Below are positions 2,316-28,989 of a stretch of DNA of 64,000 bases, in pieces. The translations under genes were made by a program, and so were the position numbers. The notes under the pieces are model-generated. The model worked only from the letters and a program-made list of their open reading frames with translations. It was not told the DNA's origin and made no database searches. This DNA comes from Rhodobacter sp. (GTDB lineage: Bacteria > Pseudomonadota > Alphaproteobacteria > Rhodobacterales > Rhodobacteraceae): the NCBI GenBank assembly GCA_016704435.1, contig JADJAB010000018.1, forward strand, positions 3,436 to 67,435. The letters are read 5' to 3'. Position 1 is the first letter of the stretch; the number at the start of each line of letters is the position of its first letter.

Positions 2316-2395
2316 GGGGCCGCCTGCTCTGTTTGAAAGAGCAAGCGTAGCCCGCCGCAGGACTGCCCAGCAGCGTCAGAACCTCACCCCGAAAG

Positions 2396-2490
2396 GGTGA
2401 CCGGATACCCCGGAATCGGTGACCGGATCAGATTGGAATCCCCGACCGGATCAAATCGGAATCCCCGACCGGATCACCCCGGAATGCGCA
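2396..2490. repeat. IS21 left-end array of transposase-binding repeats
   Basis: Four repeats of (t/c)gaccggat-N-ggaatc, for example ccgaccggatcaaatcggaatc and ccgaccggatcaccccggaat. Confidence 0.85.
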
Positions 2491-2586
2491 AATCACGCGG
2501 GCCGACCGCCCTCAAGCAGATCAATGGGTCCTGACCCTAGGGTATTTCTATAAATCAACCAACCGACGTGATCTGGCGGTAGTGTC

Positions 2587-3475
2587 TCAGTTTGAATTAT
2601 CTTTTTTCCGGTAGGGTCCGCGCGGCTTGGGTGCGGGTGCAGCGGCGTCAATGATCCCGACCAGCCAAGTCATGTCGTGCAGCGTCTTTGTTACGCCAGC
2701 GGCCATTGCCGGGGTCATCTTGAGCGTCTTGTGCATCCGCACGAAGTTATAATGCACGAAGTAGAGCGACAGCATGTGCAGGTGGTTTTGCAGCTTGCTG
2801 AAACCGTTGGTCAGGCGCGTGAAGCGGCGCATACCCATGCGCATGGTCAGGTTCTGGCGTTCCACATGCGACGTGCTGACCATTTCCTTAACCGGGTAGC
2901 CGCTTATCAGTTCTTTCCGCGCGCCGGTGCATTCGGCGGGGCTATACTTGCGCTCGTGTCCCTTAGCGCCCGTAGCATCGCCATACAGCTTGATCAGCAT
3001 GGCATAGTCCACATCGCCGCCGAACGCGCCTTCAACCGCTTCAAGGTAAGCCTTGTGCCCGTCCGTAGTCAGTTGGACGCGGTTTGCCAGACGGGCGCGC
3101 AGATCGTCCATGAACTCGATTGCGGTTGCGCCCGAACGGTCGCCGACCTCAAAAGACAGGATCATCTTGCTATCGCGGTCAATGGCGGTCCACGTCCACA
3201 CGTCGCCTGCACCAACCGGAGCGGATTTGGCGGTCGCCACATTCTTGTCTTTGCTGTAACAGAACGACCAGATTTCATCGCACTGGACCTGTTGCGCTTT
3301 CACATCGCGCACCGTCACGTCATGGTATGCAGCGCAAGCCTTGCCAGCGTCCTCAAGCAGCTTGGTCACTGTGTTGATCGAAACACCCGTGATGCGGCTA
3401 ATCGAACGCGTGGACGAACCCCTCAACGAGCATGTTGGAGGATGGTGACGCGGTTTTGATGTCTAGCTTGTTCAT
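2587..3475 (-). CDS. IS1-family DDE transposase (apparent indels in the first ~20 codons)
   Basis: QCDEIWSF, WTWTAID, QLTTDGHKAY and STSHVERQNLTMR motifs. The reconstructed start is MNKLDIKTRVTILNMLVEGSS at 3475. The stop codon lies inside the left IR. Confidence 0.85.
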
Positions 3476-3594
3476 GTTGATGAGATATGAACTTTATGCT
3501 TAGCGTCATATAATCACACATCGCCTTTCTGCTTGCACATAATTTCATGCAAACATGCTTGCTGTGTTCGTATAGCAAGCAGGAGTCCGCGAAG

Positions 3595-4644
3595 ATGGAT
3601 GACGACTTTCACTCTCGTGGTGGAGCGGCTCGCGCCATGCGGCTTTCCCCAGAAGAACGCAGTGCCATTGCCCGCAAGGCGGCTCTAGCGAGACACGGTA
3701 AGAAAATGCCTCATGCAGTAGCGGAGGGCACTCTGATTGTCGGAGACTTGCGCATCCCTTGCGCCGTCCTTGACGATGACCACGGCAACATGCGCGTCCT
3801 GACTCAGGAAGGCTTCCTAAACGCTATTGGTCGGGCGGGAAAAGCGAAGGGTGGAGAAGGCGCAGGGGTCGACGGGAAAGCCGCTTTCCTACGCGCAAAG
3901 AATCTAGAACCCTTCATTTCCAATGACTTGATAGTGTCGACAACTCCCATAGAGTTCGTGCCACTGCGCGGCCCTGGCTATCAAGGTCGCGCCTTTGGCT
4001 ACAAGGCATCCCTGCTACCTGATGTTTGCTGGGTGTATCAGGATGCAATGATCGCGCAAAAATTGCTGCCCAGCCAACGGCACATCGGCGAAGCATCGCG
4101 CGCCTTCCTGAAGGGGCTGACCAATCACGCTATTGAGGATTTGGTCGACCTTGCCACCGGATTCGGCGATCTTCGCAAGCGGCGCGCAATTGACCTGATC
4201 ATTGAGAAATACGTCTCCGCTGAACGTCTGCCTTACATGCAAATGTTTGATTTGGATTTCTACCGTAACGTCTACCGCTTGAATGGGTGGGCATTTGACC
4301 CGGAAAAATCCGCGCGACCCGGCGTTATCGGCCACTATACCAACGACATTTACGACCGCCTCGCGCCGGGAGTAAAGGATGCTCTACACTCAAAAGTGAA
4401 ACGGAACTCTAAGGGCCGACCTACGGAGAAGCTGACACAATACATGACGAAGGACGAAGGGAAATTGCGCCTGAAGGAACTGCTTGGCGGGGTCAAACTT
4501 CTCATGACTCAGTCACCAGACTGGCAGCACTTCAAGGTGCTACTGGACCAATACTACCCACGCTTCGGTGACACCATGCAGTTGCCCCTAGGGCACAACA
4601 TTTATGCACTGCCTCGGCCTAGCCAGAATGACCCCACCGTTTAG
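3595..4644 (+). CDS. P63C-domain protein (phage-associated) with an N-terminal basic helical motif
   Basis: AGGAG RBS at 3581. 349 aa. The C-terminal half has FDLDFYRNVYRLNGW...RPGVIGHYTNDIYDRLAPGV...KLTQY, characteristic of P63C. The CAVLDD...RVLTQEG segment is typical of these proteins. Confidence 0.72.
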   Translation: MDDDFHSRGGAARAMRLSPEERSAIARKAALARHGKKMPHAVAEGTLIVGDLRIPCAVLDDDHGNMRVLTQEGFLNAIGRAGKAKGGEGAGVDGKAAFLRAKNLEPFISNDLIVSTTPIEFVPLRGPGYQGRAFGYKASLLPDVCWVYQDAMIAQKLLPSQRHIGEASRAFLKGLTNHAIEDLVDLATGFGDLRKRRAIDLIIEKYVSAERLPYMQMFDLDFYRNVYRLNGWAFDPEKSARPGVIGHYTNDIYDRLAPGVKDALHSKVKRNSKGRPTEKLTQYMTKDEGKLRLKELLGGVKLLMTQSPDWQHFKVLLDQYYPRFGDTMQLPLGHNIYALPRPSQNDPTV

Positions 4645-4855
4645 CCGCCGCCTTCTTCGCAATCTCGGCCCGTCGCTCTGGCGTCATGCTTGCAGCGCGG
4701 GCCTTTCCGCCCTTCTTGCCCATAGCCTGAGCGGCCTTGTCCTTGCCGTCATCCTCCGGCGCGTCCTCGACCTCACCCGTGGCGATCTTGCCTATCAGCA
4801 CCGCCAGCCCCACCGCGTCGGCGGGGCGCTTTTCTCCGTTTGGTCCTTTAGGCAT
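4619..4855 (-). CDS. small basic hypothetical protein (78 aa, KGG-like motif), IS passenger
   Basis: GGAGG RBS upstream. MPKGPNGEKRPADAVGLAV...GKKGGKARAASMTPERRAEIAKKAAAKRW. This type of protein is seen next to IS1/IS1595 transposases. Confidence 0.75.
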   Translation of the reverse strand: MPKGPNGEKRPADAVGLAVLIGKIATGEVEDAPEDDGKDKAAQAMGKKGGKARAASMTPERRAEIAKKAAAKRWGHSG

Positions 4856-5005
4856 GGTGTCCTCCGTATGCTTACCGTCTAGCATATAGGAAGCGCGGGG
4901 CGATTGCGACACCTGTCAACCCCGCCCATTTTCAAACTGAGACACTACCGAGCAGCGAGGTCGCCAGTGGTGCTTCAGGGGCAGCCGAAGGTCTAATGCG
5001 GGCGG

Positions 5006-6901
5006 CCCAAGTTCGACAGTTAGCGGTAGGTTTTTGGGCCTGAGGGTTGCCTCGCTTGAGTGATTTCAATGGGTTGCGGGGTGCGCCGGTCGGGTTTGGG
5101 CGAAATCGTGTTGTAACACGCCATGATGTAAATTGCGTTGCGATACAGGCGAAAGCCGATGTATCGTTCGTCCAATGTATACGCGCATCTCAGAATCCGG
5201 CGGTCGTCGCTACCTGCAACTCGTCGAGGGGCATCGCGACGAGCTTGGGAAGGTGCGCATCAGGGTCGTCGCCAATTTGGGCCGGCTCGACAAACTCAGT
5301 CCCGGCCAGCTCGACCCTTTGATCAACGGCCTCAATCGCGCGGTAGGACGGCTCGAAAATACCGCTTCAGACATTGCCTATGAATCTTCGCTCTCCTACG
5401 GCGACGTCTTCGCCCTCCACGAACTCTGGAAGGACCTCGGCTTTGACCGCGCCCTCAGCCGTGCTTTGCGCTCGGGCCGGCGCGAGATCGATGCCGAGGC
5501 GCTGATCCGCGCCATGGTGTTCAACCGCCTCTGCGCTCCGGATAGCAAGCTGGGCTGTCTCCGTTGGCTGGAAACGGTAGCCATGCCCGCGATGCCCGAG
5601 GGCGTGACCCATCAGCATTTGCTGCGCGCCATGGATGCGCTGATGGATCATGCCGAGGTCGTGGAGATCGAACTTGCCCGTCAGATCCGCCCCCTCGTGG
5701 ATCAGGATCTGGCGATTGTCTTCTATGACCTGACGACGGTGCGCATCCATGGCGAGGGGGAGGTTGACGACGACCTGCGCGCCTTTGGGTTGAACAAGGA
5801 GACTGGCGGCATCGCCCGGCAGTTCGTGCTCGGTGTCGTGCAAACCGCCGAAGGGCTGCCGCTCATGCACACCGTTCACCCGGGCAACATGGCAGAGACC
5901 AAGACCATGCAGGCCATGCTGAAAACCGTGCTGCAGCGCTTTCCGGTGCAGCGCGTCATTCTGGTGGCCGATCGGGGGCTGCTGAGCTTTGAGAACATTG
6001 GCGAACTCACCGCGCTTGCCGATCAGGGCGGTCGCAAGCTTGAGTTCATCCTCGCCGTGCCGGCGCGGCGCTACGGCGAACTGGCTGAGACCTTCCGGGG
6101 GCTGTCTTTCTCCGAGGAGGGCCTGACCGAAGCCACCTTCGCTGGCCATCGGCTGATCGTGGCCCATGATCCGGCCCGCGCCGCCCTGCAATCCGCCCGG
6201 CGGCGGGCGCGGATCGCGGAACTGGACGCCATGGCCGAGAAGCTGGTGACACGGCTCGACGCCCAGGATGCCGGAGAGACCGCCCGGGGCCGCCGTGCCT
6301 CAGACCGGGGCGCCTACAGTCGCTTTGCCCGCGCCGTCGCCGAGGCCGAACTGACCCGCTTCCTCAAAGCCGATTACACCGCTGACCGGTTCTCCTGGGC
6401 GCTCGATGATGATGCTATTGCCGCCGCGGAACTCTTCGACGGCAAACTTGCCCTCCTGACCAACGCGCCCGACCTCACCCCCGCCGAGGCCGTCACCCGG
6501 TACAAGTCTCTCGCGGATATCGAACGTGGATTCCGAGTCCTTAAATCCGATATCGAGATAGCGCCGGTCCATCACCGTCTGCCGGATCGCATCCGCGCCC
6601 ACGCCTTGATCTGCTTCCTCGCCCTCGTGCTCTACCGCGTCATGCGCATGCGCCTGAAGGCAAAGGGACACACCGCGAGCCCGCGCACCGCGCTTGATCT
6701 GCTCGCCCGCATTCAGAAACACACCGCCCATGCCGGGAACCGATCCTTGCATGGCATCAGCAAAACCACTCCGGATCAACTCGATCTCTTTGACGCCATG
6801 AACCTGCCCAAACCTGCCCTCTGACGACCGTTGTTGTCATATTTTTGGCCATCCAGCCATAACAATAACAATCGCTTACGCGATTAACTGATGAACTTGG
6901 G
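5006..6901 (+). mobile_element. IS1634-family insertion sequence
   Basis: 17-bp IRs with 2 mismatches, CCCAAGTTCGACAGTTA (5006-5022) and TAACTGATGAACTTGGG (6885-6901), around one transposase ORF. Confidence 0.88.
5175..6824 (+). CDS. IS1634-family DDE transposase
   Basis: MYTRISESGGRRYLQLVE start, with FYDLTT, LVADRG and YKSLADIERGFRVLKS...RIRAHALICFLAL motifs. Confidence 0.93.
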   Translation: MYTRISESGGRRYLQLVEGHRDELGKVRIRVVANLGRLDKLSPGQLDPLINGLNRAVGRLENTASDIAYESSLSYGDVFALHELWKDLGFDRALSRALRSGRREIDAEALIRAMVFNRLCAPDSKLGCLRWLETVAMPAMPEGVTHQHLLRAMDALMDHAEVVEIELARQIRPLVDQDLAIVFYDLTTVRIHGEGEVDDDLRAFGLNKETGGIARQFVLGVVQTAEGLPLMHTVHPGNMAETKTMQAMLKTVLQRFPVQRVILVADRGLLSFENIGELTALADQGGRKLEFILAVPARRYGELAETFRGLSFSEEGLTEATFAGHRLIVAHDPARAALQSARRRARIAELDAMAEKLVTRLDAQDAGETARGRRASDRGAYSRFARAVAEAELTRFLKADYTADRFSWALDDDAIAAAELFDGKLALLTNAPDLTPAEAVTRYKSLADIERGFRVLKSDIEIAPVHHRLPDRIRAHALICFLALVLYRVMRMRLKAKGHTASPRTALDLLARIQKHTAHAGNRSLHGISKTTPDQLDLFDAMNLPKPAL

Positions 6902-8118: not shown

Positions 8119-8146
8119 CTTCGTGGGGGCCAGCCATGGTTTTCCG

Positions 8147-8178
8147 GGGAGGCCTGCATTTTGACCATGCGGCCTCCC
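8147..8178 (-). terminator. hairpin downstream of etfA copy 1
   Basis: GGGAGGCC-(GCAT..ATGC)-GGCCTCCC stem 10 nt after the etfA stop. The identical hairpin lies at 15685-15716. No clear U-tract. Confidence 0.55.
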
Positions 8179-8188
8179 TCGGTTGGTT

Positions 8189-9142
8189 TCAGAAGTGGTT
8201 TTGCAGTTCTTCGGCGATCTCGAACATGTCGCCGACGATGCCGTAGCGGGCGATGCTGAAGATCGAGGCTTCGGGGTCGGTGTTCACCGCCACGATGGTC
8301 TCGACATGCTTCATGCCCCACTGGTGCTGGACCGAGCCCGAGACGCCCATCGCGATATAGAGCTTGCAACTCGCCGCAAGCTGGCCCGACTGGCCGACCT
8401 GCCGCGCCTTGGGCAGCCAGCCGTTGTCGGCGATGGGCCGCGAGCAGCCGAGCGTGGCGCCCATGCCGCCGGCCAGTTCCAGGAACTGCTCGACATTGCT
8501 CTCGTCGCCAACGCCGCGCCCGATCGACAGGATGAATTCCGAGCCGGGAATGTCGATGCCGCCGGCATCGGCGGGCGGCTTCCAGCCCTCATGCGTGGTG
8601 GCGATATCAGCGGCCGGGGCTGCCATCTCGGTCACCTTGGGCGAACCCGAACCGGCGGCCGGCTCGAACACGTTGGTGCGGATGGTCAAGAGCACCGTCT
8701 CCTTGCCGGGGAAGTCGAGGTCGACCAGCACCTTCTCGGCATAGCCGGCACGGGTGGCGACCAGCGCGCCGTCCTCAAGCCGCAGCGCCTGCACATCGGT
8801 GGCCAGGCCGCAGCCCAGCTTGACCGCGGCAGCCGGCGCGAACGACCAGGCATCGACACCGTGCGCGGTGGCGATCAGCGCGGGCTTGCGCGCCTCGGCC
8901 AGCGCCAGGATCACCGCCTCGGTCAGGTCGGGCTGGAAGTCGTCGCTCGCCTTGATGGCGATCACCTCGTCCACCCCCTCGACCGAGAGCGCGCCGACAA
9001 GCGCCTGCGGATCGGCGGCGATCAGGGCAACCGCCAGCGTGTCGCCCGCCAGCTTGACGCTGCGTGCGGCGGCGATGGCCTCCAGCGACGCCGGGTGCAG
9101 TTCACCCGCGCGCTGTCCGGCAATGACAAGAAGTTCAGCCAT
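8189..9142 (-). CDS. etfA: electron transfer flavoprotein alpha subunit, TMADH-type (copy 1)
   Basis: 317 aa with GCSRPIAD, RQVGQSG and GVSGSVQH FAD motifs. It closely follows my recollection of Methylophilus methylotrophus ETF alpha (VDFPGK..VLLTIR, SIGRG). Confidence 0.95.
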   Translation of the reverse strand: MAELLVIAGQRAGELHPASLEAIAAARSVKLAGDTLAVALIAADPQALVGALSVEGVDEVIAIKASDDFQPDLTEAVILALAEARKPALIATAHGVDAWSFAPAAAVKLGCGLATDVQALRLEDGALVATRAGYAEKVLVDLDFPGKETVLLTIRTNVFEPAAGSGSPKVTEMAAPAADIATTHEGWKPPADAGGIDIPGSEFILSIGRGVGDESNVEQFLELAGGMGATLGCSRPIADNGWLPKARQVGQSGQLAASCKLYIAMGVSGSVQHQWGMKHVETIVAVNTDPEASIFSIARYGIVGDMFEIAEELQNHF

Positions 9143-9145
9143 GGA

Positions 9146-9931
9146 TCACATCCCCCGCAATTCTTTGATGATTTCGGCCAGACGGGCCGCCTGCTCGGCC
9201 GCCGATCCGGTGATCAGCTCGGCCTTGCCGCGCTCGGGCGCATACATCTTGCGCACCCGCGCAACCGGGGCGATGTCGGCCGCCGACAGCCCCAGATCGT
9301 CCAGAGACAGCTCGTCCACCGGCTTTTGCTTGGCCTGCTTGATGCCGCGCAGCGAGGCATAGCGCGGCTGGTTGATGCCCAGCTGGATCGACAAAACCGC
9401 CGGGCAGCGGATCGTCATGATCTCTTCCAGCCCGCCCTCCAACTCGCGCCGCAGCGTCGCGGTCTTGGCCCCCGGCGTGTAATCAAGGTTGCACACCACC
9501 GCGGCATGCGGCCAGCCCAGCAGGCCAGCCAACGCCATGCCGGTGACCGCCGAGCCGAAATCGGCCGATTGCGCGCCGGTAAAAACCATGTCCGGCTGTT
9601 CACGTTCCACCAGCCTGGCCAGAACCCGCGCAACCGCCACGCCATCGGCTTCGGCCAGCGCATCATCCCAGACCCGGATGCCGCGGTCGGCCCCCTTGGC
9701 CAGCGCGGTGCGCAGCGCATCATCGGCATCCTCGTCGCCGACGATGGCGATCACCACCTCGGCGGCGTCGCCTGCAGCCTCCTTGATCAGCATCGCCTCT
9801 TCGACCGAAAAGTGATCGAATTCGTTGAGATCCTTCTCGAAGAAATCCGCGTCGACATCGCGCCCGTCGGCGCGCATCTCGAACTCGTCATCAAGAAAAG
9901 CGGCCTGCTTGACCGCCACCAGTATCTTCAT
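9146..9931 (-). CDS. etfB: electron transfer flavoprotein beta subunit, TMADH-type (copy 1)
   Basis: MKILVAVKQ...ALAKGADR...RRELEGG...IQLGINQPRYASLRGIKQA, matching the methylotroph ETF beta type. Confidence 0.95.
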   Translation of the reverse strand: MKILVAVKQAAFLDDEFEMRADGRDVDADFFEKDLNEFDHFSVEEAMLIKEAAGDAAEVVIAIVGDEDADDALRTALAKGADRGIRVWDDALAEADGVAVARVLARLVEREQPDMVFTGAQSADFGSAVTGMALAGLLGWPHAAVVCNLDYTPGAKTATLRRELEGGLEEIMTIRCPAVLSIQLGINQPRYASLRGIKQAKQKPVDELSLDDLGLSAADIAPVARVRKMYAPERGKAELITGSAAEQAARLAEIIKELRGM

Positions 9932-10000
9932 CTCTGCTGCTCCATTTCCAGATCCTGTATCAATGCCGAACGCGCCAGATGCGCCGCGGCCGCATGGCGG
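9928..10000 (-). pseudogene. 3' remnant of an LRV/HEAT-repeat gene
   Basis: Reads RHAAAAHLARSALIQDLEMEQQR*, compared with the LRV protein C-terminus RFAAATRLARALLTHDQEWSS* (17469-). Its stop overlaps the etfB ATG (ATGA). Confidence 0.6.
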
Positions 10001-10001
10001 T

Positions 10002-10042
10002 GCCGTGCCCGGGGGGGGTCACCCTTGCGTTCCGGGCACGGC
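10002..10042 (-). terminator. GC-rich hairpin downstream of the GcvT-like gene
   Basis: Perfect 11-bp stem GCCGTGCCCGG / CCGGGCACGGC. No U-tract. Confidence 0.5.
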
Positions 10043-10068
10043 GGGATTGGCGAGCTGACGACGCCTGC

Positions 10069-11166
10069 CTACATGCGCATGCGCTTTTTCTCTTTGTCGT
10101 AGAACGGAAGGTCTTCGACCGTGACGTCCACGGCATCCGCGGCATTGCCGAGTTTCAGCTTGGTCCCTTCGGCGATGCCCGGGCGGATGTGGACCAGCGC
10201 GAGCGACCGTCCAAGACGGTGGGAATATTCAGAGCTGGTGACCGCCCCGACTTTCTCGCCCTTCAGAAAGAGGTCCGTGCCCCCCTCGATGATGCCTTTG
10301 CTGGAGGTGCAGGAAATACCGGTCAGCCTGACCTTTTCCTTGCCTTCCTTCTTCAGCACGGCCTCCCGGCCGAGGTAGGCGGGTTTCTTGCGGGAGATCG
10401 CCCAGCCCAGCCCCATCTCCCACGGCGTGACCTTGTCGTCCATGTCGAAGGGATAGAACAGCAGCCCGGCCTCCATTCGGCCCTTGTTCAGGCAGGTGAA
10501 AGAGCAAGGAACAACGCCATCCTCTTCGCCGGCCTTGAGGATGCTGTTCCACAGACCAACCGCATCCTTGCGATCAACAAAGATCTCATAGCCGCGCTCG
10601 CCCGAATAGCCGGTACGCGACACGATCGCCTTGTGGCCAAACAGCTCGGTCTGGATCAGCCCGAAAAATTCCACAGCTGCCACGTCCGCAGGGCAGTTCG
10701 CATCAAGCAGCTTCACCGCCTTGGGGCCCTGCAGCGACAGGGTGTGCAGCTCGTCGTCCTTCTCCAGCTTGACGTTCTTGCCTTTTGCCGCAAGGGCCAG
10801 ACGCTCATCGCCAGTGCCGGTGCCGTAGACGAAGAGATACTTGTCGTCTTCGACGCGATAGATGATGACGTCGTCACAGATCGTGCCTTCGTCGGTCAGG
10901 ATCGGGCAATAGGCCGATTTGCCCTTGGTGACCTTGCTCATGTCACGGGGCGAGACCATGTCGATGACGGCCGAAGCGTCAGGCCCCTTGACCCAGATCT
11001 TCTTGAGACCGGTAAGGTCGAACAGCCCGGCCGCTTCGCGCATGGCGTCCAGTTGGTTGTCGGCTGAGTTGGTATAGCTCCACGGCACGTCCATGTCGTT
11101 CCATGGTCCAAGCCCGGCGCCCAGGCCGCGGTGAATGTCCTCGAGTGCGGATGTTCGTTTGGCCAT
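10069..11166 (-). CDS. stand-alone GcvT-like aminomethyltransferase (THF-binding)
   Basis: 365 aa with GLFDLT, EGTICDDVIIYR, SRTGYSGERGYEI, RMEAG and LPFYD C-terminal motifs. No gcvH or gcvP nearby. Confidence 0.9.
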   Translation of the reverse strand: MAKRTSALEDIHRGLGAGLGPWNDMDVPWSYTNSADNQLDAMREAAGLFDLTGLKKIWVKGPDASAVIDMVSPRDMSKVTKGKSAYCPILTDEGTICDDVIIYRVEDDKYLFVYGTGTGDERLALAAKGKNVKLEKDDELHTLSLQGPKAVKLLDANCPADVAAVEFFGLIQTELFGHKAIVSRTGYSGERGYEIFVDRKDAVGLWNSILKAGEEDGVVPCSFTCLNKGRMEAGLLFYPFDMDDKVTPWEMGLGWAISRKKPAYLGREAVLKKEGKEKVRLTGISCTSSKGIIEGGTDLFLKGEKVGAVTSSEYSHRLGRSLALVHIRPGIAEGTKLKLGNAADAVDVTVEDLPFYDKEKKRMRM

Positions 11167-11404
11167 TCCCCTGTCCTTTCAATAGTGTCTCGGGGTTGAT
11201 CGCGCAAAGCCCGCGCGCGCCCCTTTGGTTGAACGTGAGTTTCGAACCGGGCCGCGATCGTGAACCCATCGCGGGCGGATGCCGTGGCGAGCAATCTTTA
11301 CAATCCTCGCCACGGTGTTGATGCGGAGCGGCGGCTATTGACGAACCGGCCGGGCTGCTGCCCGAACCATGGCCATCAAGCGCGATCCGGATCGCCCTTC
11401 AGGC

Positions 11405-13675
<2,271 letters not shown>

Positions 13676-14602
13676 TCAGAACAAAGGAAATTGCCATTAA
13701 GCAACGACACGACCGTTCATGCTTTCGAACATGGACAGCTTATCATCAATACTGGCTAGCTTCCCCGAAACATCCATCCTTGGGGGATTGAGGCTGAACT
13801 TATCCCAACCGTCAAAGAAACCCCGCATGGAGGATTTGAGCTTTCCGACCTCCCTTAACTTGACCCTAGGTACACCAAAATCAAGTTACAACGAAAAGAT
13901 GGCCCTGCGGCACCTTGTCTCGGGTGTCATCATATTTTTAATATTATCATTACCTTAACGTCCTTTCTGTTCTGCCAGGATTGCATCCCGAAGCGCTCGC
14001 CAGATAGAGGTGACTTGCCTTGACCGCTCCTGATTCGCATTTCCGAAATCCGTCTCTTTTCCAGATACCAAAGATCACTCCAAGACCCATTCAGCGACAT
14101 CAGGCGATCAAAAGGAATCGGAATTGGCGCATGGATGCAGGCATCCACTCCGATTCCGGCCGGTCGCCTTCCGCACCGCCGCCGCTGGCTATCGTTTGCG
14201 ATACAGGATCGCGTATTGCGCCCCTGAATCTCCGACGATCTTGTCGCGACCCTGGTGGGGCCACGTTCCTTCCCATTTCCCGTCCCCAGCAGCTGATTTG
14301 GAGACCGGGTTGTCACTAGACAGTGCGATGTGTTCTGCCCATGTCCTTTTTCCCCTTGAGGGTAACAAATGGCCAGATTCCCGCACTGCCTTATGAGTCG
14401 CCCATGTTTCATAAAAGTCAACAAATTTTCACGTCGCGGGCTTGGGACGGCAGAAATATGCGAAAAGCGCCGGCTCCGGAGCAAAGATCGAGGCGGCATG
14501 GCTCTGGCCCCGGATGCTGTCCGGACAAGCAGACGGGGCGCCTGATGCAACCGACCGTCCTTCGAATACCTGGCAGCTTTCAACGAGATCATCACGCCAC
14601 TC

Positions 14603-15279
14603 TCAATCGGAAGCCACCTTCCGGGAAATACCCGCGCTTTCGCCCCGCGGGCGCCGCCGGCTGAACCTTGCGATTGAACCAAGTGCGTCCAACGCTCCAG
14701 CGGATAGGATTATCGCCGTTCCGACCAGCTTCTCGCCGCCATAAGGCTCGCCGGCCCACAACGACGCGCTGACTGAGGCTGCAATCACTTCGAACATCAA
14801 CAGAAGCGACACCCGACCCGGATCAAGGCGTTGCGCGCCCCAGACCATTGCCCAGGTGATCGGAATCAAGATGAAAAGAGCCGCAGCCGTGGCAAAGGGA
14901 ACCACCGCAAGCAGCTGGTCGGCGTCAGGTGCGGGATATACCGGATTGACCACTATGAAGATTGCCGCGATTCCTGCGCCGAAGACGAAACTCAGCCAGG
15001 TCTTCTCGACCTCGTAGCTTCCCTTGACCTTGTGGGCGAAGGTCGCACCGACCGCAAAGGTGATGCCGGAGCCAAGCCCCATCCACTCGCCCAGCCCGGC
15101 GGCGCGAGGCAGATTGCTGCAATGCAGAGCACCACGACGCTTGCCCAGTCGCCGCGAAATCCGAACGCATCGATCGTCCGCAGCGGAATCCACCAGCAGC
15201 CCCAGGCGGCTGCCGACGCGACCACGACCGCTGACGCATGCAGGTTCGACGATGGGCTGGTCATCAGTTGCGCAGTCAT
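14603..15279 (-). pseudogene. DMT/EamA-family transporter, frameshifted and apparently internally shortened
   Basis: The N-part (VVVASAAAWGCWWIPLR) and C-part (WGAQRLDPGRVSLLLMFEVIAASVSA..LWAGE) are in different frames. Together they give ~225 aa against ~300 expected. Confidence 0.7.
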
Positions 15280-15282
15280 GGT

Positions 15283-15657
15283 TCACCGTCGCTGGTGTTC
15301 GTGGTGCAGAATGGACCGCGTGCCGGCCGAACGACGCCCGGCGCGGAATGGCCCCCCGGCCACGGGCAAGGGCGTTTTCCAATCGAAGATCGGCATTTTA
15401 TGGGCTGTGACATCCACCAACTGCGTGTCGCCCTTCAGCACCGTCGTGATCTTCTTGACCACTGCCAGCGCGTCGGGTCCCTTGATCCAGACGGTCTTGA
15501 ACCCGAGAGGGCGGGGAGGCCGGCGGCCCGGCGGCCGGGGCCGGGCCCCCCCGCCGCGGGGCGGGGAGCCCGGGGCCCGGGCCGGGCGGCGCCCCGGTCC
15601 GGGGGGGGCGCCGAATGCGCGGTGTTCGGTCTCAAGTTCGGATACACCTTTGCCCAT
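15283..15657 (-). pseudogene. second GcvT-like gene with a corrupted GC-only tract and a large internal deletion
   Basis: MGKGVSELETEHRAFGA and GFKTVWIKGPDA align to the N-terminus of the 10069-11166 protein. VDVTAHKMPIFD aligns to its C-terminus (VDVTVEDLPFYD). The middle ~250 aa are missing. Confidence 0.72.
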
Positions 15658-15684
15658 CTCACCGTCCCTTCTGTCGGGATTGAT

Positions 15685-15716
15685 GGGAGGCCTGCATTTT
15701 GACCATGCGGCCTCCC
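15685..15716 (-). terminator. hairpin downstream of etfA copy 2
   Basis: Identical to 8147-8178. Confidence 0.55.
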
Positions 15717-15726
15717 TCGGTTGGTT

Positions 15727-16680
15727 TCAGAAGTGGTTTTGGAGTTCTTCGGCGATTTCGAACATGTCGCCGACGATGCCGTAGCGGGCGATGCTGAAGA
15801 TCGAGGCCTCGGGGTCGGTGTTCACCGCCACGATGTTCTCGACATGCTTCATGCCCCATTGATGCTGGACCGAGCGCGAGACGCCCATCGCGATGTAAAG
15901 CTTGCAATTGGCCGCAAGCTGACCCGACTGGCCGACCTGGCGCGCCTTGGGCAGCCAGCCGTTGTCGGCGATGGGGCGCGAGCAGCCAAGCGTGGCGCCC
16001 ATGCCGCCGGCCAGTTCCAGGAACTGCTCGACATTGCTCTCATCGCCAACGCCGCGCCCGATCGACAGGATGAATTCCGAGCCGGGAATGTCGATGCCGC
16101 CGGCATCGGCGGGCGGCTTCCAGCCCTCATGCGTGGTGGCGATATCGGCGGCAGGGGCTGCCATCGCGGTCACCTTGGGCGCGCCCGAGCCGGCGGCCGG
16201 CTCGAACACGTTGGTGCGGATGGTCAGGAGCACGGTGGCCTTGCCGGGAAAGTCGAGGTCGACCAGCACCTTCTCGGCATAGCCGGCACGGGTGGCGACC
16301 AGCGCGCCGTCCTCAAGCCGCAGCGCCTGCACGTCGGTGGCCAGGCCACAGCCCAGTTTCACCGCGGCGGCCGGCGCGAACGACCAGGCATCGACGCCGT
16401 GCGCGGTGGCGATCAGCGCGGGCTTGCGCGCCGCGACCAGGGCGGTGATCACCGCCTCGGTCAGGTCGGGCTGGAAGTCGTCGCTCGCCTTGATGGCGAT
16501 CACCTCGTCCACCCCCTCGACCGAGAGCGCGCCGACAAGCGCCTGCGGATCGGCGGCGATCAGGACAACCGCCAGCGTGTCGCCCGCCTGCTTGACGCCG
16601 CGTGCGGCGGCGATGGCCTCCAGCGACGACGGGCGCAGCTCGCCCTCGCGCTGCCCGGCAATGACAAGAAGTTCGGCCAT
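15727..16680 (-). CDS. etfA: ETF alpha subunit (copy 2); G-to-R change in the FAD motif
   Basis: Near-identical paralog of 8189-9142. GVSRSVQH instead of GVSGSVQH, from a single base at 15876. Confidence 0.92.
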   Translation of the reverse strand: MAELLVIAGQREGELRPSSLEAIAAARGVKQAGDTLAVVLIAADPQALVGALSVEGVDEVIAIKASDDFQPDLTEAVITALVAARKPALIATAHGVDAWSFAPAAAVKLGCGLATDVQALRLEDGALVATRAGYAEKVLVDLDFPGKATVLLTIRTNVFEPAAGSGAPKVTAMAAPAADIATTHEGWKPPADAGGIDIPGSEFILSIGRGVGDESNVEQFLELAGGMGATLGCSRPIADNGWLPKARQVGQSGQLAANCKLYIAMGVSRSVQHQWGMKHVENIVAVNTDPEASIFSIARYGIVGDMFEIAEELQNHF

Positions 16681-16682
16681 GG

Positions 16683-17467
16683 TCACATTCCCCGCAATTC
16701 TTTGATGATTTCGGCCAGACGCGCCGCCTGTTCGGCCGCCGATCCGGTGATCAGCTCGGCCTTGCCGCGCTCGGGCGCATACATCTTGCGCACCCGCGCA
16801 ACCGGGGCGACGTCGGCCGCCGACAGTCCCAGATCGTCCAGCGACAGCTCGTCCACCGGCTTTTGCTTGGCCTGCTTGATGCCGCGCAGCGAGGCATAGC
16901 GCGGCTGGTTGATGCCAAGCTGGATCGACAAAACCGCCGGGCAGCGGATCGTCATGATCTCTTCCAGCCCGCCCTCCAGCTCGCGCCGCAGCGTCGCGGT
17001 CTTGGCCCCGGCGTGTAATCAAGGTTGCACACCACCGCGGCATGCGGCCAGCCCAGCAGTCCGGCCAGCGCCATGCCGGTGACCGCCGAGCCGAAATCGG
17101 CCGATTGCGCGCCGGTGAAGACCATGTCGGGCTGTTCACGCTCCACCAGCTTGGCCAGAACCCGCGCAACCGCCACGCCATCGGCTTCGGCCAGCGCATC
17201 ATCCCAGACCCGGATGCCGCGGTCGGCCCCCTTGGCCAGCGCGGTGCGCAGCGCATCATCGGCATCCTCGTCGCCGACGATGGCGATCACCACCTCGGCC
17301 GCGTCGCCCGCCGCCTCCTTGATCAGCATCGCCTCTTCGACCGAGAAGTGGTCGAATTCGTTGAGATCCTTCTCGAAGAAATCCGCGTCAACGTCGCGAC
17401 CGTCGTCGCGCATCTCGAATTCGTCATCAAGAAAGGCGACCTGCTTGACCGCCACCAGTATCTTCAT
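16683..17467 (-). CDS. etfB: ETF beta subunit (copy 2), one frameshift in a C-run
   Basis: Paralog of 9146-9931. It has 4 C at 17006-17009 where copy 1 has 5 C (9469-9473). Confidence 0.88.
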
Positions 17468-17468
17468 C

Positions 17469-18875
17469 TCAGCTGCTCCATTCCTGGTCATGTGTCAGTA
17501 AGGCGCGCGCAAGCCGTGTTGCGGCGGCAAAGCGCACCTGCGGCTCGGGATCGTCCAGCAGACGCTCCACCAACGGCAGCGCCAGGCCGCGATGCCCCGC
17601 GAGGATCGCGCGGTTCAACGGATACGGATCCTCGGCCAGATGCCCGAGAACGCCCGGCGGCGCGGCGCGGTTGAAGGCGACAGAGCGGCGCACATCCTTG
17701 TCCGGATGGCGGGCGATCACGTCCAGTTGTGCTGCGGGGGTGCGCGGATTGCGCCCCAGCGCGCCCAGCACGTCGCGATCTTCATCACCCGTCAGACGGG
17801 CGATGGCCGTGTCGGGTGCATCTTCACGCAGGGCCACTCCGGCGCGCACCCAGGGCTGCGGATCGGTGGCAAGCGCCACCAGCAGATCCGGCGGGCAAGC
17901 CGGATTGCGGGCCACGCTGCGCCGCACCTCCGTCTCTGGATCGGCCGCCAGCTGGCCTAGCAGGGCGCGCGGCAGGTCGGGATTGCGGGCGATCCAGCGC
18001 CGCACCCAGACATCCGGGTCGGTCGTCAGCCGTTCCATCAGAGACGACGAAAGCCGACTGCGCCTGGCAAACAGACGACGGACCCTGGCTGAAGGGTCGC
18101 CGGCCTCGTCGAGACAGTCGCCCGAGACGGCCGGATTGCGGACCGCCGCCGCACGCACTCGCTCATCTGGGTCGGCCAGCAGGTTCAGAAGCGCCGCCTC
18201 AGCGATGGCGGGGTTTGCGGCGCGTTTGCGGCGGATCAGCGGATCGGTCGCCGCCTCGGCCTCGGCAAGGATGTCGGGCGGGCAATTCGGGTGCGCCGCC
18301 ACCTCGGCGCGCACCCAGACATCGTCCGCGTTCCAAAGGTGGCGCAGGGTCGGCGCATTGGCCTGCGGTGCTGCGGCGGCGTTGCGCGCAATCTGGGCGT
18401 CATCTTCTGCCGCCAGCCGCGCGATCACCGCAGCGGGCGCATGGGCATTGCCCGAGACCGTGCGGCGCACCTCGACCGATCCGTCCTTTGCCAGCCGCGA
18501 CAGGATCGCGGCATCCGCCTGCGGATGGGCGGCGATGTAGCGGCGCAGGCGGTCATCCGGGCCGCCGCGCAGCAGACGGCCAAGGGCGGTGGTCGGTGTG
18601 GCCGGGTTCTTCACCAGCCGCAGCGCCAGCGGTGCCGAGGCCCCGCGCGACAGCCGGTCGAGCAGATCGGGCGGCGCATAGGGGGCAGAGGCCACGATCA
18701 GCCGCAGGCGCGGGGTTGCCAGGATGACCGGTTCCAGTTCCGACCGTGCCATGGCCCCGGCATGGGCATAGGCCCCAAGCGCCGCGTAGGGATCGCCGGC
18801 CTTCACGAGCCGGTCGATCAACGCGCTGGCGGCAGTCTCAGGCTCCATTTGCCGGTTTTCCGCCAAGCAGTTCAT
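17469..18875 (-). CDS. LRV/HEAT-like repeat solenoid protein (468 aa)
   Basis: About 16 repeats of ~24 aa, consensus VRxxVARNPxxPxxLLxxLAxDPD. ATGA overlap with the upstream Fe-S gene and a 1-nt gap to etfB. Confidence 0.85.
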   Translation of the reverse strand: MNCLAENRQMEPETAASALIDRLVKAGDPYAALGAYAHAGAMARSELEPVILATPRLRLIVASAPYAPPDLLDRLSRGASAPLALRLVKNPATPTTALGRLLRGGPDDRLRRYIAAHPQADAAILSRLAKDGSVEVRRTVSGNAHAPAAVIARLAAEDDAQIARNAAAAPQANAPTLRHLWNADDVWVRAEVAAHPNCPPDILAEAEAATDPLIRRKRAANPAIAEAALLNLLADPDERVRAAAVRNPAVSGDCLDEAGDPSARVRRLFARRSRLSSSLMERLTTDPDVWVRRWIARNPDLPRALLGQLAADPETEVRRSVARNPACPPDLLVALATDPQPWVRAGVALREDAPDTAIARLTGDEDRDVLGALGRNPRTPAAQLDVIARHPDKDVRRSVAFNRAAPPGVLGHLAEDPYPLNRAILAGHRGLALPLVERLLDDPEPQVRFAAATRLARALLTHDQEWSS

Positions 18876-21031
18876 GCCGTCGCTACCGGTTCGGTCGCAT
18901 CGGCATCTTCACCCAGGGACGGCGTGTTATGGGCCAGTCCCATGGCTTCCTGAACCAGTTCGATCAGTTCCATCACCTTGAACCTGCCTTCGTTTCCGGT
19001 GCCCTTGACGCCGTCTTCCATCATGTTCAGGCATTTCGGGCAGTTGACGACCAGCACGTCCAGCCCGGCGATCTCGGCCGCCTCGGCGGCGCGCAATTCA
19101 GCCGGCTTCTTCATTTCCGGGGGATCGGCCAGCCAGATCCGGCCACCACCCGCACCGCAGCAGAACGAGTTGTCGCGGCTGCGGCGCAGTTCCACCAGAT
19201 TGACGCCCAGCCGTTCCAGCACCTGACGCGGCGGCTCCGTCCCGTCGTTGATCCGGCCAAGGTGGCAAGGGTCATGATAGGTCACACGATACTTCAGGCT
19301 GACCGGCGTTGGCACGGTGCCCTCGCGGATCAGCCGCTCCAGCATCGCGCTTGCATGCTCGATCTGGTAGGTGCCGCCGAACTCGGGATATTCGTTCTTG
19401 ATGGTGTTGTAGGTGTGCGGATCGGTGGTGACGATCGACTTGAAGTCGCAGCTGTTCATCAACTCGATATTGGCCTCGGCCAGCGACTGGAACAGACCTT
19501 CTTCGCCAACGCGGCGGACGTCGTTGCCGGCGGTCTGCTCGTCCTCATAGAGGATGCCGAAGTCGATCCCGGCCGCATGCAGGATGCGGGCAAAGGCGAT
19601 CGTCACCTTTTGCGAGCGCGGATCGAATGAGGCGTAGTCACCGACATACCACAGCACGTCCACCGGCTCGGTCCGCGCGTCCTTGACCTCGAAGTCCAGA
19701 TCCTTGGTCCAGCGCGGCCGCTTGCGCTTGGACTCGCCCAGCGAGTTGCCGGATTTCTGCAGGCTCTTCAGCGTCGATTGCAACATCGGGTCGAACTCGC
19801 CCGCTTCCAGCAGCGCCCGGCGCATCTGCACGATCATCGGCAAGTGTTCGATCCCCACCGGGCAGATCTCGACGCAGGCGGCACAGGTCCGGCAGGACCA
19901 GACCGTTTCCGGACGGATCATGTTGACGCCGTCGCCAGAAATGGTGATCGGTCCTTCGGGCATGCTGGCGTGCGACAGCGTGTCGTTGGCCAACTCACGC
20001 AGGCTCAGCACCAGATCGCGCGGCGACAGCGGGTAGCCGGCGGCATTGGCCGGGCAGGCCTCATGGCAGCGCCCGCATTTGGTGCAGGCATCGACGTTGA
20101 CCATGTATTTGTCGGTGAAATCGGTAAGCAGGGAAAAGCCGATCCGCTCGCCCTCGACATCGGCCGTCGGCATGCGCCGCTTGGCCTCGGGGTCGCGCGC
20201 CATCAACGAGCCCATCGCGGTGAAGATGTGCTTCACCTTGGTGTAGGGAACCAGCGAGATGAACAGCAGCGCCAGCATCCCGTGGAACCACCACAGGCTC
20301 ATGCGCAGTTCCGCCGCCCCGTCAGGACCAAGGCCCAGCGCCTTCATCAGATAGGCGGTCGCGGTGCCCACCGGCGCGAACCAGCGGTAATCCCAGACCG
20401 ACGGGTCGCCCTGAAGCCAGACCACGCGCGACGCTTCCAGCAGATAGCCGGTGAACGCAATCGTGATCAGCGTCCAGAGAAAGGCCCAATCCTCGCGCCG
20501 ATAGCCCGAGCGGTCATAGTCCGGGTCGCCGGGCGAGCGGTCGGGGCGGGTATAGTCAAGCCGGGGCAATGCCAGCCATTTGCGCCGATACATCATGTAG
20601 AGCAGCCCGCCGATCAGCGCGACGCCCGCCAGATCCATCACCGTCCCGAAGGCCAAATAGAACCAGCCATACCAGAAGTGGATGCCAAACGGGCCCAGGA
20701 TGTCCTGGTCCAGCGTGATGGTGCTGGTACCGATGAAGAGCAGCGCAAAGCCGAAGAACAGCCAGCTGTGGCTGATGCCCGCCGCCCGCGCGCGCCGTTT
20801 GATGGTGCGATGGGACAGCACCGTCGTCACCATCTGACTGAGCCGCGGCCAGAATGGCGACCAGGCACCCGAGCGCACACCGCGACGGTATTTGCGGATA
20901 TGCGTCCAGACCCCGTAGAGGAAAACACCGATCGCCAGAAATCCGACTATGTAGAAGCTGACGATCATCCAGGTCGGGAAATCCTGAAACAGGATACGTG
21001 TCACGTCCTTTGGGTTGTGTTCGGGAAACAT
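18872..21031 (-). CDS. membrane-bound Fe-S oxidoreductase, FadF/YwjF/EMO type (NarI-like TM domain, two 4Fe-4S, two CCG domains)
   Basis: N-terminal TM helices, CTKCGRCHEACP and CRTCAACVEICP, YHDPCHLGR, CCGAGGG and NCPKC. Confidence 0.88.
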   Translation of the reverse strand: MFPEHNPKDVTRILFQDFPTWMIVSFYIVGFLAIGVFLYGVWTHIRKYRRGVRSGAWSPFWPRLSQMVTTVLSHRTIKRRARAAGISHSWLFFGFALLFIGTSTITLDQDILGPFGIHFWYGWFYLAFGTVMDLAGVALIGGLLYMMYRRKWLALPRLDYTRPDRSPGDPDYDRSGYRREDWAFLWTLITIAFTGYLLEASRVVWLQGDPSVWDYRWFAPVGTATAYLMKALGLGPDGAAELRMSLWWFHGMLALLFISLVPYTKVKHIFTAMGSLMARDPEAKRRMPTADVEGERIGFSLLTDFTDKYMVNVDACTKCGRCHEACPANAAGYPLSPRDLVLSLRELANDTLSHASMPEGPITISGDGVNMIRPETVWSCRTCAACVEICPVGIEHLPMIVQMRRALLEAGEFDPMLQSTLKSLQKSGNSLGESKRKRPRWTKDLDFEVKDARTEPVDVLWYVGDYASFDPRSQKVTIAFARILHAAGIDFGILYEDEQTAGNDVRRVGEEGLFQSLAEANIELMNSCDFKSIVTTDPHTYNTIKNEYPEFGGTYQIEHASAMLERLIREGTVPTPVSLKYRVTYHDPCHLGRINDGTEPPRQVLERLGVNLVELRRSRDNSFCCGAGGGRIWLADPPEMKKPAELRAAEAAEIAGLDVLVVNCPKCLNMMEDGVKGTGNEGRFKVMELIELVQEAMGLAHNTPSLGEDADATEPVATA

Positions 21032-21130
21032 CCGGAGCGTTCCTTTGCGTTTATATCGGCGCCGTACTGGCACCGGATGTCAGGGAAATGGCGGCCAGGC
21101 ACTCTCTCGCATGGCCGCCAGAGTGTCAGA

Positions 21131-23344
<2,214 letters not shown>

Positions 23345-23372: not shown

Positions 23373-23945
23373 TCAGCTATTCGTTGCGGTCGGATCCTGC
23401 GTGGCGAGCAGAAGCGCCGCGCCAAGAAACTTGCGCATGTCGTCGAAGACGGCCGGCTTCTCGCCGCGCCAGCGGTCGTGCAGCCGGAAGGGCGCGGAGG
23501 CGCCGTTGGCCGCAGCATCAAGGCAGGCGGCCGCTTCGCGCGCAAAATTCAACGTCCGGCGGCGCATGTTGGCCTGATAGGTGTCCCAATGCTTGGCCTC
23601 CATCCGCAGATGGAACAGCGAACTGCGGGCACGCCGGGCAATGGTCATGCCCTCGACCCAGTCCGGCACTGCGCCCCACAAACGAAGGGCATGGGCATAG
23701 CGCCGCCGCGCCAGGGCCTCGTTCCCGGTCAGCCGTGCCGCCATCCCGGCATTGGCAAGGCTGGTCGCATAGCGCGGATCGCTGCGCGAAAGCCGCAACA
23801 TCGCCAACCACCAGGCGCGCCGCCACAGGCGCGCGGCGCGGTGGCTGTCGCCGTTGCGCAGCGCGGCATGCGCCTGCTCCTGCAGCCGTTCCCAGCCCAG
23901 GTCACAGCCACGCCACCCCGCAGCACGCGCTGCGGCAAGCCCCAT
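23373..23945 (-). CDS. conserved hypothetical TPR-like protein (start uncertain: 23945, 23981 or 23993)
   Basis: Helical segments RAARLWRRAW, DPRYATSLANAG and ARRRYAHALRLW. It sits between the ABC ATPase and tmd on the same strand. Confidence 0.65.
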   Translation of the reverse strand: MGLAAARAAGWRGCDLGWERLQEQAHAALRNGDSHRAARLWRRAWWLAMLRLSRSDPRYATSLANAGMAARLTGNEALARRRYAHALRLWGAVPDWVEGMTIARRARSSLFHLRMEAKHWDTYQANMRRRTLNFAREAAACLDAAANGASAPFRLHDRWRGEKPAVFDDMRKFLGAALLLATQDPTATNS

Positions 23946-23952
23946 ATCGGGC

Positions 23953-24658
23953 TCAGGCGCCAAGATAAGCACGTCGGACATGGTCGTTCTCATGAAGATC
24001 CCTCGCTTTCCCCTCAAGCACGAGGTCACCGGTTTCGAGCACATAGGCGTGGTCCGCCAGTTCCAGCGCCAGCTCGGCGTTCTGTTCCACCAGGATCACC
24101 GCAACGCCCTGCTTGCTGATTTCCTCGATGATCACCGCGATCTCTTCGACGATGACCGGGGCGAGGCCCATCGACGGCTCGTCAAGCAGCAGCAGTCTGG
24201 GCTTGGCCATCAGCGCGCGGCCGATCGCCAGCATCTGCTGCTCGCCGCCGGACATGGTCTTGGCAAACTGGGTGCGCCGTTCGCGCAGGCGGGGGAAGCG
24301 CTGAAACACTGCCTCCAGATCGGCGGCAACCTGCACCTTGTCGCGCCGCAGGAAGGCACCGGTGCGCAGATTTTCCTCAACGGTAAGGTCGGGGAATACC
24401 CGCCGCCCTTCGGGCATGGGCGATGCCGCGGGCGACAATTTTCTCGGGCGGCAGCCGGTCGATCCGCTGACCATCAAACCAGATCTCGCCGCCTGACAGT
24501 TTCGCAAGACCCGAGATCGCGCGCAGCGTCGTGGTCTTGCCGGCGCCATTGCCGCCGATGATCGTGACGATCCCGCTTGCCGGGGCCTGCAGCGTGATAT
24601 TCCGGATCGCCGAAACCTTCTGGTAGTTTACCGATGCGTCCTTGACCTCAAGCAACAT
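23953..24658 (-). CDS. HAAT-family ABC ATPase (LivF-like), frameshift near 24415
   Basis: GGNGAGKTT, MSGGEQQMLAIGRALM and LLLLDEPS motifs, split over two frames. Confidence 0.9.
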
Positions 24659-26434: not shown

Positions 26435-26448
26435 CCGCCTGCCCCCCC

Positions 26449-27318: not shown

Positions 27319-27405
27319 CAGGCGCCCCCCCCCCGTTTGGCGGAAAAGCGGCCGCTCCGGTGGCGGCACCGGACCGAAGCGGCTGTTGACCTGCGAGCCT
27401 GGGGA

Positions 27406-28710: not shown

Positions 28711-28750
28711 TTCATCTCCTCCCTCTTCTGCAGTCCGGTTAGTCCGGATG

Positions 28751-28786
28751 ACCAGTTTGAACCAATTCGCGACCAAATTAGACCAA
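28751..28786. promoter_or_regulatory. candidate FadR/GntR operator array (four phased half-sites)
   Basis: ACCAG/ACCAA at 28751, 28761, 28772 and 28782. A further AATTGGTCTA at 28911. Located between the divergent ABC operon and the regulator. Confidence 0.5.
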
Positions 28787-28989
28787 GATCAAACTCCACA
28801 GCCTGAACCCCGCCATTGGCAGATGGCTCAATGCCCAATGTAGCGCCAGATTTCGCCAATCTCAACACAAACGACATAAAGTTGCTAAGTTTGGCTTGAT
28901 GGCGAAATATAATTGGTCTATTTTGGGTGAAATTGATACAAGCGAAAATGAATCAAGTGTTGATTTCAGAGGCTTGGGAGATCGCACCA

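Follow-up and report, generated by a model that had tools for sequence, protein, structure and literature searches.

A stand-alone GcvT-like protein linked to trimethylamine and dimethylamine dehydrogenase genes as a candidate tetrahydrofolate-dependent one-carbon partner

Introduction

Trimethylamine dehydrogenase (TMADH) is a classic model flavoprotein, and schemes invariably show both this enzyme and dimethylamine dehydrogenase (DMADH) giving off free formaldehyde, which is toxic. In trimethylamine N-oxide (TMAO) demethylase (Tdm), dimethylglycine oxidase/dehydrogenase (DMGO/DMGDH) and the alpha subunit of heterotetrameric sarcosine oxidase (SoxA), a fused GcvT-like domain turns the one-carbon (C1) unit derived from the N-methyl group into 5,10-methylene-tetrahydrofolate (CH2-THF). 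A stand-alone GcvT-domain protein, DmmD, is encoded in the dimethylamine monooxygenase operon dmmDABC; it is dispensable for dimethylamine (DMA) turnover in Escherichia coli yet needed for normal growth on methylated amines, and it has been proposed, as a hypothesis only, to conjugate the released formaldehyde with tetrahydrofolate (THF, or H4F) (PMC5520151, PMC4543880). Here, we report on a stretch of 64,000 nucleotides from Rhodobacter sp. (contig JADJAB010000018.1, positions 3,436 to 67,435; hereafter, the window) in which an intact gene for a stand-alone GcvT-like protein (10069..11166, minus strand) lies directly behind a DMADH gene (dmd).

An earlier sequence-only reading of this DNA had proposed that a separate subunit would give the dehydrogenases THF coupling, and that this would be a new arrangement. 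The claim of novelty has to be withdrawn in this form, since with DmmD a GcvT-domain protein that stands alone next to an enzyme demethylating methylated amines is already on record (PMC5520151, PMC4543880). The new element is the partner, i.e., a dehydrogenase with flavin mononucleotide (FMN) and a 4Fe-4S cluster that works with electron-transferring flavoprotein (ETF), while the concept of passing C1 units to THF is already known from DmmD, Tdm, DMGO/DMGDH and SoxA. The searchable literature, outside of which most subscription journals lie, yielded no paper that pairs TMADH or DMADH with an aminomethyltransferase or a GcvT-like protein, and work on Gemmobacter and on P. aminovorans BM109 is silent about such a pairing.

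The GcvT-like gene and its product

The GcvT-like open reading frame (ORF) at 10069-11166 on the minus strand has an ATG start preceded, 7 nt upstream, by a GAAAGGA motif as ribosome binding site (RBS), and encodes a stand-alone, THF-binding-type protein of 365 aa, the dmd-linked member of two paralogues. Pfam GCV_T is covered end to end (E-value of 2e-66; 224 bits vs. a cut-off of 25.6) and is accompanied by GCV_T_C (1.3e-14; 54 bits vs. a cut-off of 25.9), while an AlphaFold model built from 30 homologues (mean predicted local distance difference test score, pLDDT, of 89.7) displays the three-domain T-protein fold and matches the Thermotoga maritima T-protein (1WOS) with a template modelling (TM) score of 0.92. 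With both domains above their gathering thresholds and this match in fold, the protein belongs to the GcvT-fold/aminomethyltransferase superfamily. A gap of 238 nt separates the dmd stop (11405) from the start of the GcvT-like gene (11166), and the genes for the two ETF subunits, i.e., etfB (9146-9931) and etfA (8189-9142), follow downstream. When E. coli GcvH and GcvP were used as tblastn queries, neither gcvH nor gcvP was found in the 64-kb window (best E-values of 0.86 and 0.68, respectively). The sequence-only reading was therefore right in describing an intact GcvT-fold gene that directly follows dmd, with no gcvH or gcvP in the window; the etfB and etfA genes behind it had gone unmentioned.

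The nearest characterised relative of the window protein is the DmmD of Paracoccus aminophilus plasmid pAMI6 (39% identity over 368 aa; 264 bits). The DmmD proteins of Methylocella silvestris, P. aminophilus and Ruegeria pomeroyi resemble the window protein in being stand-alone polypeptides of ~370 aa with GCV_T and GCV_T_C domains, in being encoded beside a methylated-amine demethylating enzyme, and in carrying Leu both for Met56 and for the GcvT-specific Arg (see below). DmmD is accessory, not catalytic, for amine turnover. The systems differ in the partner, since the window protein is paired with an FMN/4Fe-4S dehydrogenase feeding ETF, whereas DmmD is paired with the NAD(P)H- and O2-dependent DmmABC. 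Moreover, no dmmABC genes are adjacent to the window gene, and DmmD branches outside the TMADH-linked clades. This latter placement comes from neighbour-joining trees (quick distance trees without support values) in which the TMADH-linked clades group together, with DmmD as outgroup, then the C-terminal domain of Tdm, and with E. coli GcvT far off.

The canonical THF-binding set of human GcvT consists of Met56, Asp101, Tyr197 and Glu204, and a further residue, Arg233, is specific to GcvT proteins (PMC9551070). Their counterparts in the window protein are L54, D99, Y187 and E194, the last three of which are invariant among 30 homologues, with D99 aligning to the Asp that is mutated in the E. 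coli D97N structure (PDB 3A8K). Leu226 aligns with the Arg of the E. coli 'GARD' motif, a position where Tdm and DmmD have Leu as well; as Arg233 was equated with this column by a hand count of the human sequence, the correspondence is slightly uncertain. By this residue set, the protein is predicted to be a THF-binding member of the GcvT fold.

The fold itself, together with the THF residues and the catalytic Asp, is shared with genuine T-proteins (TM of 0.83-0.92), which provide the best structural matches, and the top-scoring NCBIfam model is that of a GcvT subfamily. Both points would suit an ordinary glycine-cleavage T-protein paralogue that ended up in the island by chance. However, all NCBIfam GcvT models stay under their cut-offs (NF001567, 243 vs. 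300; TIGR00528, 199 vs. 236; NF010093, 178 vs. 459), and the identity to E. coli GcvT amounts to 30%. The lack of gcvH and gcvP in the window, the Leu226 at the GcvT-specific Arg column, the grouping with DmmD away from E. coli GcvT in the neighbour-joining tree, and the position beside TMADH-family genes, which is conserved across dozens of genomes, all argue against a chance paralogue as well and leave this explanation extremely improbable. Judged by these scores and residues, the protein is not a glycine-cleavage T-protein.

The same fold is also found in YgfZ and Iba57, which act in the maturation of 4Fe-4S proteins (PMC9551070). Since TMADH, DMADH and a CCG-type protein of the same cluster are Fe-S proteins, the window protein could on this precedent help to mature or assemble the Fe-S flavoproteins of this gene cluster, independently of THF. 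Nevertheless, the structural match to YgfZ/Iba57 (TM of 0.58-0.65) is much weaker than that to T-proteins, the canonical THF residues retained in the window protein are lost in both, and relatives of the window protein that are not linked to TMADH pair with MttB-family genes rather than with known Fe-S proteins. A maturation role is, as such, very unlikely.

Gene linkage across genomes and metagenomes

A genome scan, with one genome per species, returned 80 loci encoding proteins 46-95% identical to the window GcvT-like protein, each of which was probed with the tmd (i.e., TMADH), dmd, etfA, etfB, Fe-S and LRV proteins of the window. A TMADH-family gene was present within 10 kb in 41 of these 80 genomic loci. 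In all four loci at >=79% identity, dmd was located immediately upstream, while in the 54-61% identity band the gene was, at 8 of 12 loci, the last of a tmd-FeS-LRV-etfB-etfA-gcvT(-EamA) row, with two further loci being cut upstream and still keeping LRV-etfBA. The row tmd-FeS-LRV-etfB-etfA-gcvT was seen in P. aminovorans plasmid IV, Hoeflea, Pseudogemmobacter, Aurantimonas (where it adjoins genes of the N-methylglutamate pathway) and others. Tabrizicola soli unites the modules in one line (hyp-tmd-FeS-LRV-dmd-gcvT-etfB-etfA), and GcvT-like copies of both types, dmd and tmd, occur ~15 kb apart in strains QY30 and AG16, with ~60% identity between them. In a further large clade, the gene directly upstream is of the TMADH family, with 58% identity to the window tmd and with the TMADH signature kept.

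In the opposite direction, a metagenome scan with the window tmd also returned 80 loci. Sixteen contigs encoded a TMADH orthologue at >=70% identity, and 11 of them had a GcvT-like gene within the cluster or next to it. Six of the 11 (L093, L094, L098, L141, L167 and L168; ~10001-19000), with a GC content of 0.39-0.48, encode a TMADH that is 85-86% identical to that of Methylophilus methylotrophus W3A1, and have the order tmd-FeS-LRV-etfBA followed by the GcvT-like gene, the product of which falls in the stand-alone superclade and not with true GcvT. The Fe-S/CCG, LRV/HEAT and small pre-tmd proteins were likewise kept with tmd from alphaproteobacteria to these low-GC, near-Methylophilus contigs.

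Conserved gene linkage, seen in both search directions, thus provides strong evidence that the GcvT-like protein is a widespread partner of TMADH and DMADH. Together with the retained THF residues, the lost GcvT-specific Arg and the GcvT and DmdA scores under threshold, this two-way synteny ties the protein to TMADH/DMADH rather than to DmdA or glycine cleavage, i.e., the placement that the sequence-only reading had favoured.

Clades without TMADH were found as well, behind genes for either an MttB-family (non-methanogen) methyltransferase or a gamma-butyrobetaine hydroxylase (GBBH)/TauD-like dioxygenase; the loci of such relatives include L007 (7430-10077), L045 (8355-11095), L079 (8305-11089) and L067 (7677-11092). 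This distribution suggests a portable family that handles C1 units alongside amine-demethylating enzymes of several kinds. In a small Paracoccaceae/Amylibacter clade (L023-L026), the GcvT-like gene stands directly behind the pre-tmd small protein and an ABC ATPase (~9261-11098 in L023), with no tmd, Fe-S, LRV or ETF genes in between, giving the impression of a cluster that has lost its central part.

Since their relatives adjoin MttB-family or GBBH/TauD-like genes, the members of this family are not tied to one chemistry, which brings in the possibility of a DmdA-like, THF-dependent demethylase that yields 5-methyl-THF by taking a methyl group straight off a methylated ammonium compound, and that is only co-regulated with dmd and tmd. 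DmdA, like the window protein, is a stand-alone GcvT-fold enzyme of marine/alphaproteobacterial C1 metabolism, and the presence of DmdA, LigM and DesA among the matches indicates that direct methyl transfer is possible on the GcvT fold. The chemistry of DmdA differs, being a methyl transfer that yields 5-methyl-THF, and the window protein scores only 147.7 bits against the NCBIfam DmdA model NF009133 (cut-off of 410) and 100 bits against PDB 3TFH, and its matches to LigM and DesA reach no more than ~57-60 bits. Its closer relatives, DmmD and the C-terminal domain of Tdm, are formaldehyde- or iminium-capturing modules instead, and the Asp that serves the attack of N10 on a methylene carbon does not vary. 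On chemical reasoning, moreover, trimethylamine (TMA) and DMA are poorer methyl donors than sulfonium or quaternary ammonium compounds. Direct methyl transfer is therefore an unlikely function for this protein.

Proposed function

On balance, the GcvT-like protein is probably an accessory, THF-dependent C1-capture partner of DMADH and TMADH. As the pairing with dmd recurs in dozens of bacteria, the protein most likely loads released formaldehyde onto THF. In the mechanism that we propose, DMADH or TMADH would oxidise an N-methyl group on its 6-S-cysteinyl-FMN, with the 4Fe-4S cluster handing the electrons on to the co-encoded ETF, from where they would probably reach quinone via the co-encoded membrane Fe-S/CCG protein. 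The C1 unit would be released as iminium, carbinolamine or formaldehyde, after which the GcvT-like protein with bound THF, the N10 of which would be activated by Asp99, could turn this unit into CH2-THF. As a result, free formaldehyde would be kept low, and THF-linked oxidation and serine pathways would be fed. This would be the same job as proposed for DmmD with dimethylamine monooxygenase. Both THF binding and the CH2-THF product are inferred here.

The fused GcvT-like domains offer the other point of comparison. Those of Tdm, DMGO/DMGDH and SoxA have the same fold, catalytic Asp and pterin-binding Tyr/Glu as the window protein, which the C-terminal domain of Tdm matches at 217 bits (NCBIfam) and 153 bits (PDB). 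Unlike the window protein, which is a separate polypeptide, these domains are covalently fused to the catalytic domain and joined to it by an internal cavity, so that any channelling by the window protein would need docking. A tentative elaboration is that the protein docks obligately on the dehydrogenase and intercepts the iminium or carbinolamine before free formaldehyde forms. If so, TMADH and DMADH might be two-component THF-dependent demethylases in vivo, with the tmd- and dmd-type paralogues reflecting partner-specific docking, although we hold this to be rather doubtful. The extension of docking to the whole DmmD/TMADH-linked family, which would then be a general C1-to-THF module for Dmm, TMADH, DMADH, MttB-like and GBBH-like enzymes, is just as speculative. 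Partner specificity is suggested by distinct tmd-type and dmd-type paralogues being kept within the same genomes, while a single GcvT-like copy for both enzymes in L022, L087, L110 and Tabrizicola speaks against its being strict.

Several observations weigh against a C1-capture partnership. The tmd-type GcvT-like copy has been lost in the window while tmd is intact, which argues against strict partner specificity as well, and implies that this function can be shared or done without. Since the purified homodimers of TMADH and DMADH are active, the GcvT-like protein can be accessory at most. Moreover, formaldehyde and THF also condense spontaneously, and the benefit of an enzyme is therefore assumed. 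Regarding linkage, the TMADH clusters L095, L099, L101 and L119 showed no GcvT-like gene within the DNA of their contigs, and neither GcvT-like nor ETF genes were found within 7-10 kb in L102, L103 and L111, the dehydrogenase of which has the DMADH signature and is 78% identical to the window dmd. The absence of the GcvT-like gene at these latter loci means that the partnership is lineage-dependent, and a partner that is not universal fits an accessory role. At the residue level, Met56 of the THF-binding set is not kept, the window protein having a Leu there in common with DmmD and with the THF-binding Tdm. Finally, metatranscriptome contigs cover dmd strongly, with a depth ~10-fold lower over the GcvT-like gene, although contig depth says little about expression and carried-over DNA may contribute.

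The dmd/GcvT-like spacer and transcription

The spacer between dmd and the GcvT-like gene (11167..11404, minus strand) is unusually long at 238 nt and contains one strong hairpin (11282-11315, minus strand), which has a 10-bp stem, has no T tract behind it and is common only to the nearest relative, L009. A riboswitch (THF or ZTP) or another conserved RNA was considered for this spacer and rejected after Rfam, folding and alignment tests proved negative. More specifically, the Rfam search of the 238 nt gave no match, the z-score of the fold was only -1.06, and a comparison of nine orthologous spacers revealed nothing conserved besides the RBS. No sigma-70-like promoter was found between 7900 and 14000.

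The window sequence was present in wastewater and sludge metagenomes, and in metatranscriptomes of the same sample type. One RNA-derived contig spans 10762-11503, running from within the GcvT-like gene through the spacer into dmd, as would be expected from transcriptional read-through in a closely related strain, with the above caveat on DNA carry-over holding here as well.

The dehydrogenase genes and the surrounding island

The GcvT-like gene is part of a methylated-amine oxidation island at 7,000-31,300, on the minus strand. Read from high to low coordinates, first in the island are a Liv-type ABC transporter, two substrate-binding proteins and a GntR/FCD regulator (23953-31307, minus strand), followed by a small conserved protein without Pfam or NCBIfam family (23373..24044, minus strand) that, by synteny, always precedes tmd. 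The tmd gene itself (21131..23329, minus strand) encodes a TMADH of 732 aa that aligns without gaps to PDB 1DJN (1290 bits) and is 71% identical to the TMADH of M. methylotrophus W3A1 over 728 aa. It retains Cys30, Tyr60, Ser74 and Trp105 (signature CYSW) and the 4Fe-4S cysteines.

The dmd gene (11405..13663, minus strand) has an ORF of 752 aa, the true start of which probably lies at Met14 or Met16. Its product matches the TMADH of PDB 1DJN at 1132 bits, is 65% identical to the W3A1 enzyme, and has Cys30 and the CxxCxxC...C 4Fe-4S motif. At the TMADH positions 60, 74 and 105, it carries Gln, Thr and Phe (signature CQTF), the three exchanges that set DMADH apart from TMADH in the Y60Q/S74T/W105F engineering work, and we take them to be the DMADH signature. 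Both flavoproteins hence display the Cys30 site for 6-S-cysteinyl-FMN, the 4Fe-4S motif, the ADP-binding domain and the bowl residues 60/74/105 expected of TMADH/DMADH. The labels tmd and dmd given by the sequence-only reading stand, because of the full-length 1DJN alignments, the 71% and 65% identity to W3A1 TMADH and the active-site residues at positions 60, 74 and 105. The order of Pfam domains (OYE-like flavoprotein, CCG-FeS, ETF) had at first been read as a DgcAB-type dimethylglycine demethylase; this candidate was dropped because both flavoproteins are 65-71% identical to the crystallised TMADH and bear TMADH/DMADH signatures.

Between tmd and the first ETF genes lie a membrane Fe-S/CCG protein (18872..21073, minus strand) and an LRV/HEAT-repeat protein (17469..18875, minus strand). 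The former is heterodisulfide-reductase-like (Pfam CCG and Fer4), is conserved in synteny, shows a weak QmoC-like NCBIfam match at its N-terminus, and is likely to be the link from ETF to quinone. The latter (Pfam LRV, 9e-36) is conserved in tmd clusters, where it separates the Fe-S protein from etfB. Next come the first copies of etfB (16686..17467, minus strand; frameshifted) and etfA (15730..16680, minus strand; 95% identical to the second copy). The second copies, behind the GcvT-like gene, are both intact, i.e., etfB (9146..9931, minus strand; Pfam ETF, 2.3e-36) and etfA (8189..9142, minus strand; Pfam ETF and ETF_alpha).

The dmd-gcvT-etfBA module is bordered by a block of mobile-element genes (786-6824) for a Mu-type transposase/integrase, a P63C-domain protein and transposases of the DDE and IS1-like types, and acquisition or rearrangement of this module by recombination would fit.

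The damaged second copy and other decayed genes

The stretch between etfA copy 1 and dmd (13664-15700) is degenerate. Just after etfA copy 1, it holds the tmd-linked GcvT-like remnant (15283..15657, minus strand), in which N- and C-terminal pieces are joined in one frame (approximately aa 1-17, 53-73 and 336-359 of a tmd-type GcvT-like protein), the folate-binding core being deleted or scrambled. Accordingly, tblastn with tmd-type homologues recovered aa 1-73 (E-value of 2e-6) and aa 335-357 (at 15444-15382), and the second, damaged GcvT that the sequence-only reading had noticed after the tmd module is indeed there, as an ORF at 15283-15657 with its core deleted. The remnant is followed by a broken gene for an EamA/DMT transporter, which is the usual last gene of the tmd cluster (14681..15279, minus strand; weak Pfam EamA match). 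With the Aurantimonas EamA as tblastn query, aa 1-60 and aa 146-293 were found in different frames, with the middle missing. No recognisable gene was found in 13664-14600.

The etfB-etfA pair is present as a duplication of ~1.8 kb (15680-17488 and 8140-9950) with ~95% identity. The frameshift in etfB copy 1 stems from the deletion of one base at ~17010 (a run of four C residues vs. five in copy 2), and may be either real or a homopolymer assembly error. Upstream of tmd, a livF-like ABC ATPase gene (23959-24658) is split across two frames near 24416-24444, making it a possible pseudogene or another assembly error. An insertion in this gene, as suggested by the 167-nt skip of an RNA contig at 24249-24417, was rejected, since tblastn shows a frameshift.

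Conclusions

Pathway schemes for TMA-degrading Paracoccus handle the formaldehyde from TMADH only via glutathione-linked steps (bioRxiv 10.64898/2026.04.15.718846), and a THF-linked route would bear on attempts to use TMA-degrading Paracoccus strains. The conservation of a THF-binding-type partner in TMADH/DMADH clusters, including some whose TMADH is 83-86% identical to the Methylophilus enzyme, suggests that the C1 unit may go straight to methylene-THF. If this is true, carbon-flux models for methylated amines as growth substrates, be it in wastewater, in soil or in the sea, would change, and a large family that is annotated only as 'aminomethyltransferase family protein' would gain a specific function.

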